A stretch of DNA of 64,000 nt from an uncultured Cytophagales bacterium (GCA_963761725.1 CAVXHP010000006.1:381534-445533), one strand, 5' to 3'; counted from the stretch's first letter, positions 5,346 to 45,107 are shown. Numbers and translations: made by a program. The notes: generated by a model from the letters alone, not told the origin.

Positions 5346-5457
5346 CCAATTTAAAATAGAGTATAGATACAATTAATTTTGCTTTGCTACTTACTCAATT
5401 AGTTAGGTATTTGTATTCATTTACCATTGATAATTTACCATTCATCATTCATCATTC

Positions 5458-7829
5458 CTATCTTCTGCTACCCGAATAGCTCATTGCTTCTCCTTTTCCA
5501 AAGGCGTAACTTACTCCAAAGGTTACAAAACGTCCACGCATTCCAAAATTATAGTTTTCGAAGGTAGGCTGATTTACAAAACTTTCTTGTATTCTTGATG
5601 CAAAAACATCTCTAATTCCTAAATTACCAACTACTTTTCCTTTAAGAAACTTCTTACGAATACCCAAATCCATAAAAGCAAAACCACTTTGTTTTCCTTG
5701 TACTGTTTCGAAGCTAGAACGGTAATTTCCAGCTATTTCAAAATCAATATCAGCAGGTAATTTTATTTTCGTGTCCAGACGAACAGACCATTGCGTTCCT
5801 GTAAAATCAAATTCTCGGCTTTCAAAAACTCCTCTTCGGTCAAAATACGTGTAATTAAAGTTACCATTAAAAGTAAGCCATTTAATAGGATTGTATTTTC
5901 CATTCGTTTCAAATCCAATAAGCGAATTTGTTCCAATATTTTGAGGTGTAGTAAAGGTAACATTATCTACAAAAGTAGAAACTCGTTCTACTACATCGGT
6001 CGTATATCTATGGTAAACACTAGAACTCATTGAAGCTTCTCCAAGTTCGTAGATACTTGTCAGTTCATAAGAGTCTGTAAATTCGGGTTGAAGGTCTGGG
6101 TTACCTGTACGAATATTAAAATTATTTCTGATATTAAAGAAAGGATTCAAATCCCACAATCTGGGTCTAAAAATACGTCTGGAGTATCCCGCTTGAAGTG
6201 CAAAATTTTCTGATGCTGTAAAGGAAGTATGTAAAGAAGGAAAAAGATTAGTAAAGTTTTGAGAATTAGATTCGTTTGTAGTTGTCAATTCTGTTTGAAG
6301 GTCTGTATTTTCTACACGCAAACCAGCTTTGATACCCCATATTTCAGTTTCAAAAGCTCCTGTTGCATACACTCCCAATACCTTCTGATTCCATTCAAAA
6401 TTATTGGTAAAATCCAAATTGCTTACATATTCTTATTTACAAAATCTTGTACTTCAAAATCATTTCCTACTCATTAATAACATACAATGCACCTGTTTCA
6501 AAAGTATATTTTTCTGTTATTGGATTGACATAATCTGCCTTAAAAGTATAATCTGTTTGGTCAAAAGTAGTAGCTGTAAGCTGATTACTATCTACATTTT
6601 CGCCTTCTAGTGTTCTATCAATAAAGACAGAAGAAAGGTCTTTTGCAAACGAACTTCCCAATGCACTTACTTGAAAAGTATGGTCTTCATTATTTTTGAA
6701 AGTTTTTGTCCAATTGAGTTCGTATTGCCATTTTGGGTTGGTAGCTTCTGTATCTTCATTACGCACCCACCTGGGAAATAGTATTATCATCTTCTAAAAA
6801 ACTAAAATTTGTTTCAGAAGGTTGGTCTTCTATTTCGTAGGCAAAGTTTCCTGAAAGTGTAAAGACATTGTACTCGTTTAGATGATAATCTGTACCTAAT
6901 CTGATATTGAAAAAGGTTTCGTTTCTAAACTCTTCTCCATCACTCAAAATAGTTTGTCCACTAATTAAATTTCGGTTGATGGCTTCTGTTTGTCTAGGTC
7001 TTGAGCGATGACCAATACCAAATTGAGTAAATAAATTAAACTTTTCAGTACGACGATTTATACTTCCTCCAAGACTATGATTAGCAGGAATACCTGTATT
7101 TGCAGAAATAGAACCATTCCAACCTTCCTTTGACTCCTTTTTAAGAACAATATTCAAAATTCCTGAGGTACCAGAAGCCTCATATTTTGCCGAAGGATTT
7201 GTAATTACTTCAATACTTTCAATCATATCTGCGGTAATAGTACCCAGTCCAGTACCACCATCTGTCAAGATAGAGGGTTTGCCATTGATAAGGATTTGTA
7301 CGCCAGCACTTCCACGCAAACTAATTTCTCCATCAATATTTACATTTACGGAAGGTACATTATTTAAAACTTCTAATGCACTAGCTCCCGTAGTGCTTAA
7401 GTCTTTTCCGACATTAAAAACACGTTTATCTAATTGAAAAGTGGTCTTGGAGACTTCTCCTTCTACTACTATTTGATCAAGCAGTTTCATATCTGGAGCA
7501 AGGGAAACAGTTCCCAAATTTACTTCATCACCTGAAATAGTAAATGCTGTTAGTGTCTTGGATTGATAACCCATAAAACTAATTTTTACATAAAAATTAG
7601 TTTGAGTAGTAGAGACAGAAAATGTTCCATCTTCGGCTGATATAACTCCTGTGATGAGTTCTTCTGTTCCTGTTTTGTAAAGTGCAACGGTAGCATAAGG
7701 AACAGGTTGAGCGGTTTCTTCTTCAACTAAATTGCCAAAGACTTCTATTTCTTGTTCTTGAGCAGTAGCAAAATTACTTCCTATAAAAAATAAGAATAAA
7801 CAAACTACGTGTAGTAAATAATTTTTCAT
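5458..7829 (-). pseudogene. TonB-dependent outer membrane receptor (CarboxypepD_reg-like N-domain plus plug plus barrel), split into three ORFs by two frameshifts
   Basis: ORF 6759..7829 carries a signal peptide, a carboxypeptidase-regulatory-like domain and plug motifs (ISLRGS...). ORFs 6467..6790 and 5458..6417 continue the beta-barrel. Frame changes at ~6760-6790 and ~6417-6467. Confidence 0.7.
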
Positions 7830-11327: not shown

Positions 11328-13112
11328 TTAATCACAATCATACACATATTGTGTAGTGCTTGTCGTGGTTGTTCCTGCTGCAATGATTGTAGCAACACTT
11401 GTACGCAATAATCCTTTTGCATCAATCGTATTATTTACTTCACCTTGACTTACACCATTTCCGTCCGTAACGACTGTTTTGAGAAGTTGACAATCTTTGT
11501 AAGTATTTACTTGCCTTTGAGTAAGAACGTCACTTGCATCAAAAGTTTCTACCAGTTTTGGGAAACTTCCTGTTGTATTTAGGAAATCAGAAGAAACTGT
11601 ATAGCCTGTTAATGCACCTGCTGGCGTATAAGAATCTGAACGAGTCAAACGTTTGTTTGTGTCATATGTATTGATTACATATGATGTTAGAGTTCCTGTT
11701 GCATCAAAATTATTTACTCTTACAGTACGATCTCCATTACTATACACATACTCAGCAGAACCTGTTGGGGTAGAACCGAATTTGGTTTCATCTTTTATTC
11801 TTCTTCCTTGTGCATCATATTGAATAGAAATAACTACGTTGCCAAAACCAGTTGCAGTAGTAATTGAGGAGAGATTTTTGACTCCATTCACAACCGTATA
11901 AGCATATGTTACAGTTATAGTTCCTGCTGCTGTTACTGATGTAGTTTTGGTTACATAACAATCAGGTAAATTACAAGGATTTCCTCCTCCTCCTGTTCCA
12001 GATGCAGCTTTTACAGTTACTTTCTTTGTTATTTCATTTGTTCCTACCGAATTTGTAACTACTAATTTTACATCAAAATCACCTGCTGCCGTAAAAGTAA
12101 ATTTTGGATTTTCCGCTGTTGAGCTAAAACTAGTCCCTGCTGCAGACCATTGATAAGAAGTTGCGTTTGTGCTTGTGTTTGTAAACGTTACTTCTTGTCC
12201 TGTTTCTGGACTAGCTGGAGAAAAACTAAATGCTGCAACAGGAGCTACTTGTGCAGCTTTTACAGTTACTTTTTTAGTTATTTCATTTGTTCCTACCGAA
12301 TTTGTAACTACTAATTTTACATCAAAATCACCTGCTGCCGTAAAGGTAAATTTTGGATTTTCTACTGTTGAGTTAAAACTGGTTCCTGCTGCTGACCATT
12401 GATAAGAAGTTGCATTTGTACTTGTATTTGTGAAAGTTACTTCTTGTCCTGTCTCTGGACTGGCTGGAGAAAAACTAAATGCCGCAACAGGAGCTACTTG
12501 TGCAGCCTTTACAGTTACTTTTTTAGTTATTTCATTTGTTCCTACCGAATTTGTAACTACTAATTTTACATCAAAATCACCTGCTGCCGTAAAAGTAAAT
12601 TTTGGATTTTCTACTGTTGAGCTAAAACTGGTTCCTGCTGCTGACCATTGATAAGAAGTTGCATTTGTGCTTGTGCTTGTAAATGTTACTTCTTGTCCTG
12701 TCTCTGGACTGGCTGGAGAAAAACTAAATGCTGCAACAGGTGCAGGTGGTGGTGGTGTATCTGCTGGAGCAACGCTAATTTGTTTGGTAACTGTCGTACT
12801 TCCACCTTCTCCTGTAGCTACTAATTTTATATCAAAAGTACCTACAGTAGTAAAAGTAAATGTTGGATTTTTTTCAGTAGAGTTGAAATTTGTTCCTGAC
12901 CAAACAAAAGAAGTTGCATTAGTACTTGTGTTAGTAAACGTAACAGCTTCGTTTACTTTCGGACTAACAGGAGTAAAAGAAAAATCTGCCGTTGGTGCTT
13001 TTGGTTTTTCCTCTTCTTCTTTTTCATCAGAACAGCTTGCTGCCACAAAGGAGAGCAAAACAAAAAAAAGGAAGACATTTTTTAATGTGTTTAGAAAGTG
13101 ATATGATTTCAT
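11328..13112 (-). CDS. secreted lipoprotein with four PKD-like domains (three near-identical tandem copies) and a C-terminal YD-repeat-like region
   Basis: Lipoprotein signal (LLSFVAASCSDE). An 83-aa unit (VAAFSFSPASPETGQEVTFTNTSTNATSYQWS...VTVKAAQVAP) repeats 3x almost identically. C-terminus has YD-like motifs (IQYDAQGRRI, YDTNKRLTRSDSY). Confidence 0.75.
   Translation of the reverse strand: MKSYHFLNTLKNVFLFFVLLSFVAASCSDEKEEEEKPKAPTADFSFTPVSPKVNEAVTFTNTSTNATSFVWSGTNFNSTEKNPTFTFTTVGTFDIKLVATGEGGSTTVTKQISVAPADTPPPPAPVAAFSFSPASPETGQEVTFTSTSTNATSYQWSAAGTSFSSTVENPKFTFTAAGDFDVKLVVTNSVGTNEITKKVTVKAAQVAPVAAFSFSPASPETGQEVTFTNTSTNATSYQWSAAGTSFNSTVENPKFTFTAAGDFDVKLVVTNSVGTNEITKKVTVKAAQVAPVAAFSFSPASPETGQEVTFTNTSTNATSYQWSAAGTSFSSTAENPKFTFTAAGDFDVKLVVTNSVGTNEITKKVTVKAASGTGGGGNPCNLPDCYVTKTTSVTAAGTITVTYAYTVVNGVKNLSSITTATGFGNVVISIQYDAQGRRIKDETKFGSTPTGSAEYVYSNGDRTVRVNNFDATGTLTSYVINTYDTNKRLTRSDSYTPAGALTGYTVSSDFLNTTGSFPKLVETFDASDVLTQRQVNTYKDCQLLKTVVTDGNGVSQGEVNNTIDAKGLLRTSVATIIAAGTTTTSTTQYVYDCD
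11990..12740. repeat. 3 x 249-bp near-identical tandem DNA repeat (PKD-domain units) inside CDS 11328..13112
   Basis: Antisense ORFs 12169.., 12430.. and 12667.. translate almost identically. Recurring landmarks are offset by 249 nt. Confidence 0.8.
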
Positions 13113-15217: not shown

Positions 15218-15293
15218 AGTTATTAGTTATTAGTTATTAGTTATTAGTTATTAGTTATTAGTTATTAGTTATTAGTTATTAGTGCTGAACTAT
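15218..15293. repeat. (AGTTATT)n heptanucleotide microsatellite, ~10.5 units
   Basis: Perfect tandem agttatt repeats immediately after the ald stop codon. Confidence 0.9.
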
Positions 15294-39366: not shown

Positions 39367-39487
39367 AAATTACGGATTACGGATTACGGATTACGGACTA
39401 AAAGCTATGAACTACAAATACCAATCAAAACATATTTAACTGAAATTAACTGGTTACTGATTACTGGTAACTGCTAACTGACAAAGA

Positions 39488-42747: not shown

Positions 42748-43908
42748 TTATTCTCCGTCTTCTAATTCTTCGTCTTCAAAGACAAAGTCTTCATCGCTTT
42801 CTTCCTCTTCACTTTCGTCTTCAGAAGTTGCAGCAATAGCTTTTTCTGCTTTTTTGTCTTTGCCTTTGGCTCCTTTATTTCTACCTTCTTTTTCTGCTAA
42901 GACTGATGCCTTATCCAAATCACGTAGTTGTTTTTCAAGGTCTGCCATTAATACCTCATCGTCTTCGATAAGAGCTTTTACAGAATCACGACCTTGTCCG
43001 AGTTTGTTGTCTCCGTAAGAGTACCAAGAACCCGATTTTTTTACGATATCCAAATCAACAGCCAAATCCAAGATTTCGCCAGCTTTAGAAATTCCTCTTC
43101 CATACATAATATCAAACTCAACTTGTTTGAAAGGAGGAGCTAATTTGTTTTTCTTGACACTTACACGAGTACGGTTACCCGTAATTTTGTCTCCGTCTTT
43201 GATTGCACCAATACGGCGAATATCCAAACGAACAGAAGAATAAAACTTAAGTGCATTACCACCCGTCGTAGTTTCTGGACTACCGAACATTACACCAATC
43301 TTATCACGAAGTTGGTTGATAAAGATACACGTACATTGCGTTTTGCTAATTACACCCGTCAGTTTACGAAGTGCTTGCGACATAAGACGTGCTTGAAGAC
43401 CCATTTTAGAATCTCCCATATCACCTTCTAATTCTGCCTTTGGCACAAGAGCAGCCACAGAGTCAATTACTACAATATCAATCGCAGTTGAGCGAATCAA
43501 TTGTTCGGCAATTTCTAAGGCTTGCTCACCATTATCAGGCTGTGAGATAAGAAGGTTATCCAAATCTACACCTAATGCTTGAGCATAGGCACGGTCAAAA
43601 GCGTGTTCTGCATCAATAAAGGCAGCTAATCCACCTTGTTTTTGTGCTTCTGCAATAGCGTGCAGAGTGAGCGTAGTTTTACCAGAAGACTCTGGTCCAT
43701 AAATCTCTACTACTCTACCACGAGGTAATCCACCAATTCCTAAAGCAATATCAAGTCCTAATGAACCTGTTGAGATGCTCGGAATATCTACTACATTATC
43801 GTCAGTCAATTTCATGACTGTTCCTTTTCCGTAAGTTTTGTCTAATTTTGCTAGAGTTACTTTTAGTGCTTCTAGCTTCTTTTTTTGTTCGTCGGCTGCT
43901 TTCGCCAT
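42748..43908 (-). CDS. recA: recombinase RecA
   Basis: 386 aa. Walker [10 protein letters not shown]. Canonical RecA core ([14 protein letters not shown]). Acidic C-terminal tail. Confidence 0.97.
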
Positions 43909-43960
43909 AATTGAAATATATATAAGAGTGATAAATTATTTACTGATTTTTGTGTCCTTT

Positions 43961-44286
43961 AAGGATAATACAAAATTAATAGTGCAGAACGTAAGCGATT
44001 TACGTTGTAAAAATTAATTTCTTAAAAAACATTAAATTTCATTTTCTAAGACTTTTTTTAATCCGAAGCTAAAGCATCGGCTACATTAAAGAACAATACA
44101 AAATTAAGAGAGCAGAACGTAAGCGATTTACATTCTAGAAATTATTTCTAAAAATAGTTTTAAAATTTAATTTTTAGAAGTATAATTTTTTCTTATTATC
44201 CGAAGCTAAAGCATCGGCTAGATTAAGAATACTACAAAGATAATGGTGCAGAACGTAAACGATTTACGTTGTGAAAAATAATTTGA
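43961..44286. repeat. ~2.5 tandem copies of a ~130-bp repeat in the recA upstream region
   Basis: Each unit contains gcagaacgtaagcgatttacgtt (palindromic aacgta...tacgtt) and atccgaagctaaagcatcggcta. Unit boundaries ~43961, ~44089, ~44224. Confidence 0.75.
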
Positions 44287-44342
44287 TTATCTGGTATTTT
44301 GAAGTAATTCGTAAAATATCAAATCTTTAAAGTTATTATTTT

Positions 44343-45107
44343 TTGTACTTTTACAGACTTATTAGAGTAAAACAAAATTCAAAAAATTATATAGTTACTA
44401 TGGAAAATTACACAATCAATTATCACAAAACCTTCTTGACTGATATATCAAAAGGTCTTCAAGCTGCTCTTGATGCCTACAAAAACCAATATATCAAACA
44501 AGCAATTTATGCCTTCGGAAGTCCGACCAGCAAAGACGACAAACTCAGTATAGAATTTGCGACAGCTCCACAAGGTCATTGCTTTACCGATTATGTACTT
44601 TTAGAACAGCAACTCAACAAACAAAAAATCTATCAACGTTATCTTGAAGAGCAATCAGAAGCGAAAGAAATACCTTTATTGAGTAAGTTTATTCCTTCTC
44701 TTGAAAAATCATATACTTCCCTTTTTAGAATTATAGATGTTGATGTAGAAGAGGGAATTATCTATTTTGATGATGTTTTGGGAGTAAAGGAAAATCAAGA
44801 AATTGCAATTATAGATAAAATACTTGCTGATACAATAGACAGAAATCCTATTAATATGAATTTTTTGATGTTCTTTCGTTTCATTCCTTTTTTAGGAGAT
44901 TTTATTGATATGAATGATGAGGAAGATGTAGTAAAGGGAATGACAAATGGGTATATTTATATATTCAATCCACAAGAAGAACATAAAATTATAAAAGAAT
45001 ACGAAAAAATGGCTGCCAAAGTACGAGTTTCGAAATCTTCTTCTAAAAGACAAATTGCTTTTACAGAACTAGATAAAAAGTACGGACAAAAATTGTTGTT
45101 GTCTTAA
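44343..45107 (+). CDS. hypothetical protein
   Basis: 254-aa ORF (alternative start MENYTINYHK at 44401). No recognisable family. Confidence 0.4.
   Translation: MYFYRLIRVKQNSKNYIVTMENYTINYHKTFLTDISKGLQAALDAYKNQYIKQAIYAFGSPTSKDDKLSIEFATAPQGHCFTDYVLLEQQLNKQKIYQRYLEEQSEAKEIPLLSKFIPSLEKSYTSLFRIIDVDVEEGIIYFDDVLGVKENQEIAIIDKILADTIDRNPINMNFLMFFRFIPFLGDFIDMNDEEDVVKGMTNGYIYIFNPQEEHKIIKEYEKMAAKVRVSKSSSKRQIAFTELDKKYGQKLLLS

Follow-up and report, generated by a model that had tools for sequence, protein, structure and literature searches.

The recA locus and its upstream array

In the window, that is, the whole stretch of 64,000 nucleotides that was analysed, a recA gene lies on the minus strand and the region upstream of it, up to a divergent neighbour on the plus strand, is occupied by an array of three tandem units. 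The genes and elements of the locus are the following (coordinates of the window; evidence in brackets):

42748..43908, minus strand: coding sequence of recA, 386 aa, which the array serves (open reading frame; Pfam RecA, E=7e-138)
43958..44312, minus strand: whole array, three tandem promoter-plus-dyad units of ~128-136 bp, as read from the sequence (repeat-family search; blastn of the window)
43971..43978, minus strand: proximal predicted -7 box TAATTTTG (TAnnTTTG) (sequence and cross-site phasing)
43990..44004, minus strand: proximal dyad CGTAAATCGCTTACG (CGTA-N7-TACG), with a 3' TTCT extension at 43986-43989
44061..44083, minus strand: second motif, copy 1 (TAGCCGATGCTTTAGCTTCGGAT when read in the direction of recA), covering about +12 to +34 of the transcript predicted for the middle promoter (exact repeat)
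44099..44106, minus strand: middle predicted -7 box TAATTTTG (sequence and phasing)
44118..44132, minus strand: middle dyad TGTAAATCGCTTACG, whose distal half-site has one mismatch, TTCT at 44114-44117
44198..44220, minus strand: second motif, copy 2, covering about +11 to +33 of the transcript predicted for the distal promoter (exact repeat)
44235..44242, minus strand: distal predicted -7 box TATCTTTG (sequence and phasing)
44254..44268, minus strand: distal dyad CGTAAATCGTTTACG, TTCT at 44250-44253
44400..45107, plus strand: divergent neighbour gene, 235 aa, outside the element (open reading frame; Pfam scan without hit)

The RecA encoded in the window matches one database protein at 100% identity and the RecA of named Bernardetia at 91-94%. 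The proteins of this genus measure 380-387 aa vs 342-371 aa in the retrieved relatives, and carry a C-terminal tail of ~45 aa, lysine-rich and then strongly acidic, which is encoded at the recA 3' end (42748-42900 of the window). As for the divergent gene, the earlier note had rightly recognised its presence but placed its start at 44343, which is an in-frame TTG upstream of the actual ATG at 44400. The neighbours found at the same position in two related loci (L066 and L068) are also of 235 aa and have precomputed DUF7986 hits, and the gene on the divergent side is a different one in L069-L071.

The region 43958-44312 contains three copies of the sequence GCAGAACGTAA[G/A]CGATTTAC[G/A]TT, at 43984, 44112 and 44248, and the 23-mer GCAGAACGTAAGCGATTTACGTT is recovered on the plus strand at the same three positions with 0, 1 and 1 mismatches, respectively, and never in 100 shuffles. 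The repeats of ~130 bp that had been reported upstream of recA are resolved by a repeat-family search into three 91-nt copies (43958-44048, 44086-44176 and 44222-44312) with a spacing of 128 and 136 nt, and the palindrome that had been placed three times at 60-340 bp from the gene has its centres ~89, 217 and 353 nt upstream of the recA ATG. The copies are 66-77% identical to the reference copy, and this limited likeness is probably the reason why the array escaped Tandem Repeats Finder (minimum score 30). A second repeated motif, ATCCGAAGCTAAAGCATCGGCTA, occurs as two exact copies at 44061 and 44198 (none expected by chance, with no matches in 100 shuffles), as had been noticed before, but it is not conserved within the genus: at its position the other Bernardetia have a different sequence, and it falls outside the conserved element. 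It forms a weak hairpin (-7.4 kcal/mol, z=-1.85).

Other tandem repeats are present elsewhere in the window. Perfect or near-perfect heptamer repeats, which recall the short tandem heptamer repeats of cyanobacteria, lie in intergenic DNA near the ends of open reading frames: AGTTATT x9.4 (15218-15283) and ATTACGG x4.1 (39369-39397) start 2-3 nt past a stop codon, TAACTGR x5 (39447-39481) follows the ATTACGG repeat by 50 nt, and a TCATTCA-like run x6 (5417-5457) ends at the stop codon of the ORF 5458..6417 on the minus strand. Furthermore, a 249-bp unit is repeated 3.0 times with 94% identity at 12003-12740, within a 594-aa ORF (11328..13112, minus strand), giving an in-frame repeat of an 83-aa segment.

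Promoter elements of the repeated unit

Read on the recA strand, the three units have the same order, namely a T-rich stretch, CGTA-N7-TACG, TTCT, 7 nt and TAnnTTTG, the last one being TAATTTTG in the proximal and middle units and TATCTTTG in the distal unit. In Bacteroidetes TAnnTTTG is the -7 box of sigma-A promoters and spans positions -12 to -5 of the mapped Flavobacterium starts (PMC9723704), and therefore the centre of the dyad falls near -31, the usual place of the -33 element. The predicted start sites lie near 43966, 44094 and 44230, and the proximal one would give a leader of 58 nt to the recA ATG. A -33 element TTG is expected ~17-21 nt upstream of the -7 box in Bacteroidetes sigma-A promoters. 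This TTG is absent at the dyad centre in every site, where the sequence reads TCG, TCC, TAG or TCA.

Upstream of the genes of the window TAnnTTTG is found in 9 out of 38 cases vs 6 out of 38 on the other strand, an enrichment that is not significant, so that the assignment of the -7 box rests on its phasing across species and not on this genome alone. In fact, TTTG starts at a fixed distance of 11-12 nt after TTCT across ~30 distinct sites, and in three loci (L042, L044 and L046) the recA ATG lies ~20 nt past the box, which therefore belongs to the recA promoter. A scan for sigma-70 promoters and terminators, made with a tool that does not cover Bacteroidetes promoters, gave nothing meaningful. 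As judged from sequence, every unit amounts to an entire core promoter of recA that includes the dyad.

Occurrence of the dyad in Bacteroidota

Scanning 185,579 species genomes for AGAACGTAANCGATTTAC gave 44 loci, about 15 of which are non-coding Bacteroidota sites with a uniform orientation to the downstream TTTG. In eight of the genome-scan loci (L004, L010, L019, L026, L038, L042, L044 and L016, the last from a Bernardetia MAG) recA is the next gene after the dyad, and L018, whose stored sequence ends just before the expected recA, is the ninth of this list. A metagenome scan returned eight recA loci, the same dinB and 106-aa loci described below and one further cas-adjacent site. Both scans were exact matches with 17-18 bases fixed and give a small sample of the regulon; sites with other centres are consequently missed, e.g., the recA copies of Bernardetia sp. 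OM2101 itself. The recA loci were also retrieved through RecA homologues, independently of the dyad pattern.

In the loci retrieved through RecA the invariant part is CGTA-N7-TACG and then (T/G)TCT. The 7 nt at the centre differ by species (AATCGCT, AATCCCT, TATCCTT, CATAGAT, ATTCGTT) and tend to be uniform within one genome. The site is asymmetric, as the promoter-proximal TCT is invariant and the distal flank is variable, and in two lineages both half-sites have changed symmetrically to CCGTA...TACGG.

The phased architecture is found upstream of recA in genomes and metagenomes of both Flavobacteriales and Cytophagales. In Flavobacteriales the dyad begins 3-17 nt past the stop codon of the peroxiredoxin gene bcp, and therefore recA has its own promoter within an apparent operon; in Cytophagales the upstream gene varies or is divergent, and the dyad is nevertheless at recA. 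The bcp and recA genes are neighbours on the same strand in the Flavobacteriales loci L004, L010, L026, L038, L042 and L044 and in the metagenome loci L045-L049, L055, L056 and L063.

Outside recA, the dyad was found once per lineage at dinB, at a gene for a 106-aa protein and beside a type I cas operon. In a Crocinitomicaceae lineage (L028/L059, 8551-8583) it lies between divergent gyrB and dinB genes (IMS domains in Pfam), with the -7 box facing dinB, ~220 nt upstream of the dinB start codon. In a second pair of loci (L021/L051; L051 2062-2437) a perfect dyad and an in-phase TTTG precede the 106-aa gene (MKNLTDKIVVNQIEWTNNESDMH...), whose product has no Pfam hit and may be a small protein induced by damage. 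In Bernardetia sp. OM2101 (L009, 5799-5833) a dyad with its -7 box lies ~270 nt from the start of cas6, identified by a Cas6 Pfam hit, in a type I CRISPR-Cas operon, and in a Cytophagales MAG and a metagenome contig (L035, 4398-4432; L053, 1971-2005) the dyad is on the same side of a cas6 homologue. The cas-adjacent promoters point away from cas6, and downstream of these copies a search for ORFs, conserved RNAs and CRISPR arrays gave none.

A further dyad lies at L030 (6347-6448), 30 nt upstream of a gene that starts with MMKKKQTITDFIKEFGT and is cut by the contig end, near apparent excisionase-type (mobile-element) genes. This gene could be another member of the regulon or the regulator itself.

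Possible nucleic-acid structure or sigma-factor contact

The position of the dyad 3-17 nt past the bcp stop codon would also suit a hairpin, acting as a terminator, stabiliser or processing site of the upstream gene, or as a leader structure in the distal transcripts. Phage terminators with similar stems do exist, two lineages show the symmetric change to CCGTA...TACGG, and the middle copy folds at -8.6 kcal/mol (z=-4.7), but the other two copies fold weakly (-4.8 and -5.6 kcal/mol). No T-run follows the dyad on either strand, so it is not a terminator, and its own promoter does not transcribe it, since it precedes the -7 box; moreover, the element keeps to recA where the upstream gene changes or is divergent. 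The alignment of 31 sites points in the same direction. The four inner pairs are invariant, and pairing in the outer arms is interrupted in roughly half of the sites, as TTCT on the promoter-proximal side is fixed and the distal flank drifts. Covariation does not exceed that of shuffles (49 of 500), which makes a hairpin role unlikely. In Rfam, the gathering scan gave only three tRNAs and a scan of the region at E<=10 gave only noise. Overall, we regard a nucleic-acid hairpin as very improbable.

Viral contigs were scanned with AGAACGTA-N7-TACGTTCT, which retrieved mostly terminators of T4-like phages and coding matches, and no match in a Bacteroidota promoter context. In about 11 T4-like phage contigs (L076-L092) a stem AGAACGTAG-N5-CTACGTTCT and a T-run after it precede a gp55-like gene; as relatives of the dyad these stems were discarded, being terminators with a chance resemblance.

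The fixed phase with the TTTG box and the invariant, asymmetric TACGTTCT beside it might instead suggest an alternative-sigma or an unusual extended sigma-A promoter, in which RNA polymerase itself reads the dyad-like sequence. AAC and CGT elements are frequent in ECF-type promoters, and a CGT box has been reported for flavobacterial ECF promoters. However, the downstream box is a perfect sigma-A TAnnTTTG, and GAAC and CGT are ~11 nt apart, too close for an ECF promoter. The twofold symmetry of CGTA and TACG is unexpected for a sigma contact, as is the symmetric change of both half-sites in two lineages, and direct reading by the polymerase is therefore, in our opinion, improbable.

Copy number and age of the array in Bernardetia

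The earlier note had proposed a comparison of the recA upstream regions of relatives. All of the seven Bernardetia genomes examined, including that of the window, have two to three tandem units at recA, whereas outgroups have one unit in four cases and none in two. The units at recA are:

Bernardetia litoralis DSM 6794: 2 units
Bernardetia sp. OM2101: 3 units
Two Wsw4-3y2 assemblies: 3 units each
Bernardetia sp. ABR2-2B: 3 units
Bernardetia MAG (L016): at least 2 units, the contig breaking inside the array
Hugenholtzia roseola: 1 unit
Bernardetiaceae MAG: 1 unit
Algivirga pacifica: 1 unit
Sediminitomix flava: 1 unit
Chryseotalea: 0 units
Cesiribacter: 0 units

Identity is 96% between the middle units of L069 and L071, and pairs of proximal units are at 62-85% identity overall, with six out of ten at 74-85%. 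Units are thus partly orthologous by position between genomes, and therefore the array is older than these species. The -7 box and the dyad are intact in all three units and the array has been retained genus-wide, which makes it likely that the copies are all functional. In the Bernardetia arrays the spacing of the units ranges from 106 to 154 nt with no constant helical phase, so that cooperativity based on looping is not supported.

A generic satellite or mobile repeat that landed upstream of recA, with no regulatory role, would account for the tandem copies, for the assembly break inside the array in L016 and for the single unit found beside a cas operon elsewhere. On the other hand, blastn finds no other copy in the 64-kb window and there are no extra copies in 766 kb of retrieved loci, every element found precedes a gene start and has its -7 box in phase, the outgroups have one copy at recA, and the array is kept in seven Bernardetia genomes with units orthologous by position. 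Furthermore, since the single-copy outgroups carry the same dyad plus -7 box, the units are the native promoter, and the idea of an inserted satellite displacing it, which the earlier note had raised, is not supported. We hold a satellite origin to be hardly credible. Instead, a conserved regulator site embedded in the promoter, and amplified together with it, is a probable description of the array.

Comparison with known damage-response sites

The earlier impression that no canonical LexA box lies upstream of recA was confirmed and extended. Within one mismatch, the region 43909-44400 contains none of the canonical boxes of the E. coli, Gram-positive and alphaproteobacterial types (CTGT-N8-ACAG, GAAC-N4-GTTC, GTTC-N7-GTTC), of the Bacteroidetes LexA boxes (CTAA-N5-TTAG, GGA-N5-TCC), of the Deinococcus RDRM, i.e., the DdrO site (TTAYGT-N5-ACRTAA), and of the DriD and DdaA boxes. 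CTAA-N5-TTAG is not enriched in the window either (48 matches vs 54 expected), and compared with the RDRM the dyad has its half-sites in reverse order. In the literature searched we found no described recA palindrome in Bacteroidota. In particular, the dyad is absent from the text, from the supplements and from Table S10 of diverged dyads of the study on the Bacteroidetes SOS response (PMC8565304), where the dinB/umuD upstream sequences include one TTACGTT and no AACGTAA.

The non-canonical LexA boxes of Bacteroidetes are nevertheless close in several respects, as they belong to the same phylum, are palindromic dyad-spacer sites upstream of recA and dinB, can occur several times in one promoter and have diverged among paralogues. 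They differ in sequence and in geometry, which is 4-5-4 or 3-5-3 vs 4-7-4 here.

The DriD box of Caulobacter is C1G2(T3)C4-N7-G12(A13)C14G15, its centre being AT-rich. It is bound by DriD at the promoters of recA and driD, and base C4 of the box is read by Arg41 of DriD and is critical for binding. The DdaA box of Moraxellaceae is CGWCA-N5-TGWCG and is found at recA, at gyrA/B and in 90% of the Acinetobacter CRISPR-Cas promoters. With these boxes the dyad shares the 15-bp size, the 7-bp and mostly AT-rich centre and bases 1-3 of the half-site (C, G, T), as well as the recA target; here, too, one dinB site is divergent from gyrB and three sites are cas-adjacent. DriD binds asymmetrically (PMC10853764), which is reminiscent of the one-sided invariant extension of the dyad. 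In contrast, base 4 is C in the DriD and DdaA boxes and A in 31 of the 31 sites aligned here, most of which read CGTAA-N5-TTACG and differ from those boxes at base 4 alone. The sites of DriD and DdaA are found 17 nt ahead of the -35 element, or at about -50, further upstream than the dyad, which near -31 sits on the -33 position and is closer to the PafBC arrangement. Both regulators are known from other phyla, and no WYL regulator is linked to the dyad here.

PafBC-activated promoters do not have a -35 element. The RecA-NDp class of mycobacteria, like the promoters described here, is a class of damage promoters including recA that do without the upstream hexamer and have the regulator site just upstream of the downstream box, the activator replacing the missing contact. 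RecA-NDp is, however, non-palindromic, unrelated in sequence and bound by a heterodimer, whereas for the promoters described here such a mechanism would be suggested by position only. Mycobacterial recA is under dual PafBC/LexA control, with one LexA-dependent and one PafBC-dependent promoter, and resembles the recA of Bernardetia in having more than one promoter predicted to respond to damage. Those are two different promoters with different regulators, unlike the promoters of the array, which are near-identical tandem duplicates of one module.

The putative regulator: repressor or activator

From the twofold symmetry, the 15-bp core, the free centre, the fixed promoter phase and the conservation at recA, we infer that the dyad is the site of a dimeric, DNA-damage-responsive regulator. 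A regulator gene was sought in the ORFs of the window and of the retrieved loci, where pattern searches gave no S24 peptidase and no WYL regulator. One Bacteroidota WYL family was retrieved (PF13280; L095-L104; N-terminus MATNKNALIRYKVLD...); in several contigs it lies directly beside brxL (BREX), and thus looks like a BrxR-type defence regulator. It was set aside as the regulator, as no CGTA-N7-TACG dyad is present upstream of these genes.

The 18-mer pattern also matches coding DNA, in the RKRFT...HE..H region of apparent ImmA/IrrE-type metalloprotease genes (L008, 7152-7169; L020; L032). In L008, from an Owenweeksia MAG, this gene adjoins a DdrO-like XRE gene, possibly forming a damage-response module. 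As dyad sites, the three matches were rejected as coding coincidences.

The regulator may be a repressor. A diverged paralogue of Bacteroidetes LexA (HTH plus S24), or another protein of XRE type, would exclude RNA polymerase from the -33 position until its own removal following damage, and three operator-promoter modules would combine tight repression with a high induced output. The overlap of the dyad centre, near -31, with the -33 position is what an operator would show, and both recA and dinB belong to the core SOS genes. The LexA-like repressors of Bacteroidetes are characterised by paralogy, fast motif divergence and frequent occurrence of several sites per promoter (PMC8565304), and in the tree of the same study Fluviicola (Crocinitomicaceae) and Owenweeksia are labelled L2 without M2, which we read as a regulator without its cognate motif. 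Most sites, in addition, can be read as GTAA-N5-TTAC, one base from CTAA-N5-TTAG; yet this 4-5-4 reading fails in L066, L072 and L073, where CGTA-N7-TACG alone holds, and the absence of the dyad from the diverged dyads and supplements of that study also weighs against a LexA paralogue. The uniform lack of the -33 TTG would be odd for a strong promoter that is merely repressed, and a symmetric dimer leaves the invariant, asymmetric TCT unexplained. In our view a repressor is possible, but doubtful.

The balance tips slightly towards an activator, and all the other explanations taken together are unlikely. Our tentative candidate at the recA dyad is an HTH-WYL protein similar to DriD, DdaA or PafBC, and HTH-WYL-WCX regulators are prominent in Bacteroidetes. 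About 30 distinct sites share the phased architecture, in recA, dinB and cas-adjacent contexts, and the resemblance to the DriD/DdaA box, the one-sided invariant TCT and the missing -33 TTG are all consistent with activation. Against it stand the difference from every DriD/DdaA site at base 4, a base critical for DriD binding, the position of the DriD/DdaA sites further upstream than -31, and the results of the gene search, with no WYL or S24 gene in the window and retrieved loci and the sole retrieved WYL family linked to BREX. Furthermore, a site centred at -31 is in the classic position of a repressor. As a consequence, the operator sites for a non-canonical damage regulator that the earlier note had envisaged are upheld only in part: the dyad is conserved, phased and present at recA and once at dinB, but its reading as a repressor site is not favoured over that of an activator site.

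If an activator is at work, an HTH-WYL protein would sense single-stranded DNA and bind the dyad near -31, and the bound protein would recruit RNA polymerase, replacing the missing -33 contact. Amplification of the promoter together with its site would then have produced three tandem damage-inducible recA promoters with an additive induced output. Transcripts starting at the distal promoters would have to pass the downstream sites, where the bound protein could act as a roadblock or as an assisting factor.

Implications for recA control in Bacteroidota

The control of recA in Bacteroidota is partly known, as the LexA-like system described so far is limited to some lineages and motifs, and this recA has neither motif. 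In the literature searched, the element is undescribed for Bacteroidota, and the genus-wide amplification of a whole module is unusual. A promoter-embedded dyad conserved across two orders offers a 23-bp bait for the missing regulator, and activation and repression predict opposite outcomes of a mutation in the dyad.

More speculatively, and with odds that we consider rather poor, many Bacteroidota may have a second, LexA-independent damage circuit, in which a candidate WYL activator similar to DriD and DdaA would act on CGTA-N7-TACG at the -33 position of recA and of a few other repair and defence promoters, replacing the absent promoter element, and whose module would have been amplified two- to three-fold in Bernardetia and kept through the radiation of the genus. 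The likeness to DriD and DdaA and the cas-adjacent copies hint that a link between DNA damage and phage defence of the Moraxellaceae type may exist in Bacteroidota, and the stable tandem triplication of a promoter with its putative regulator site would represent a natural experiment in which promoter copy number tunes a stress gene.
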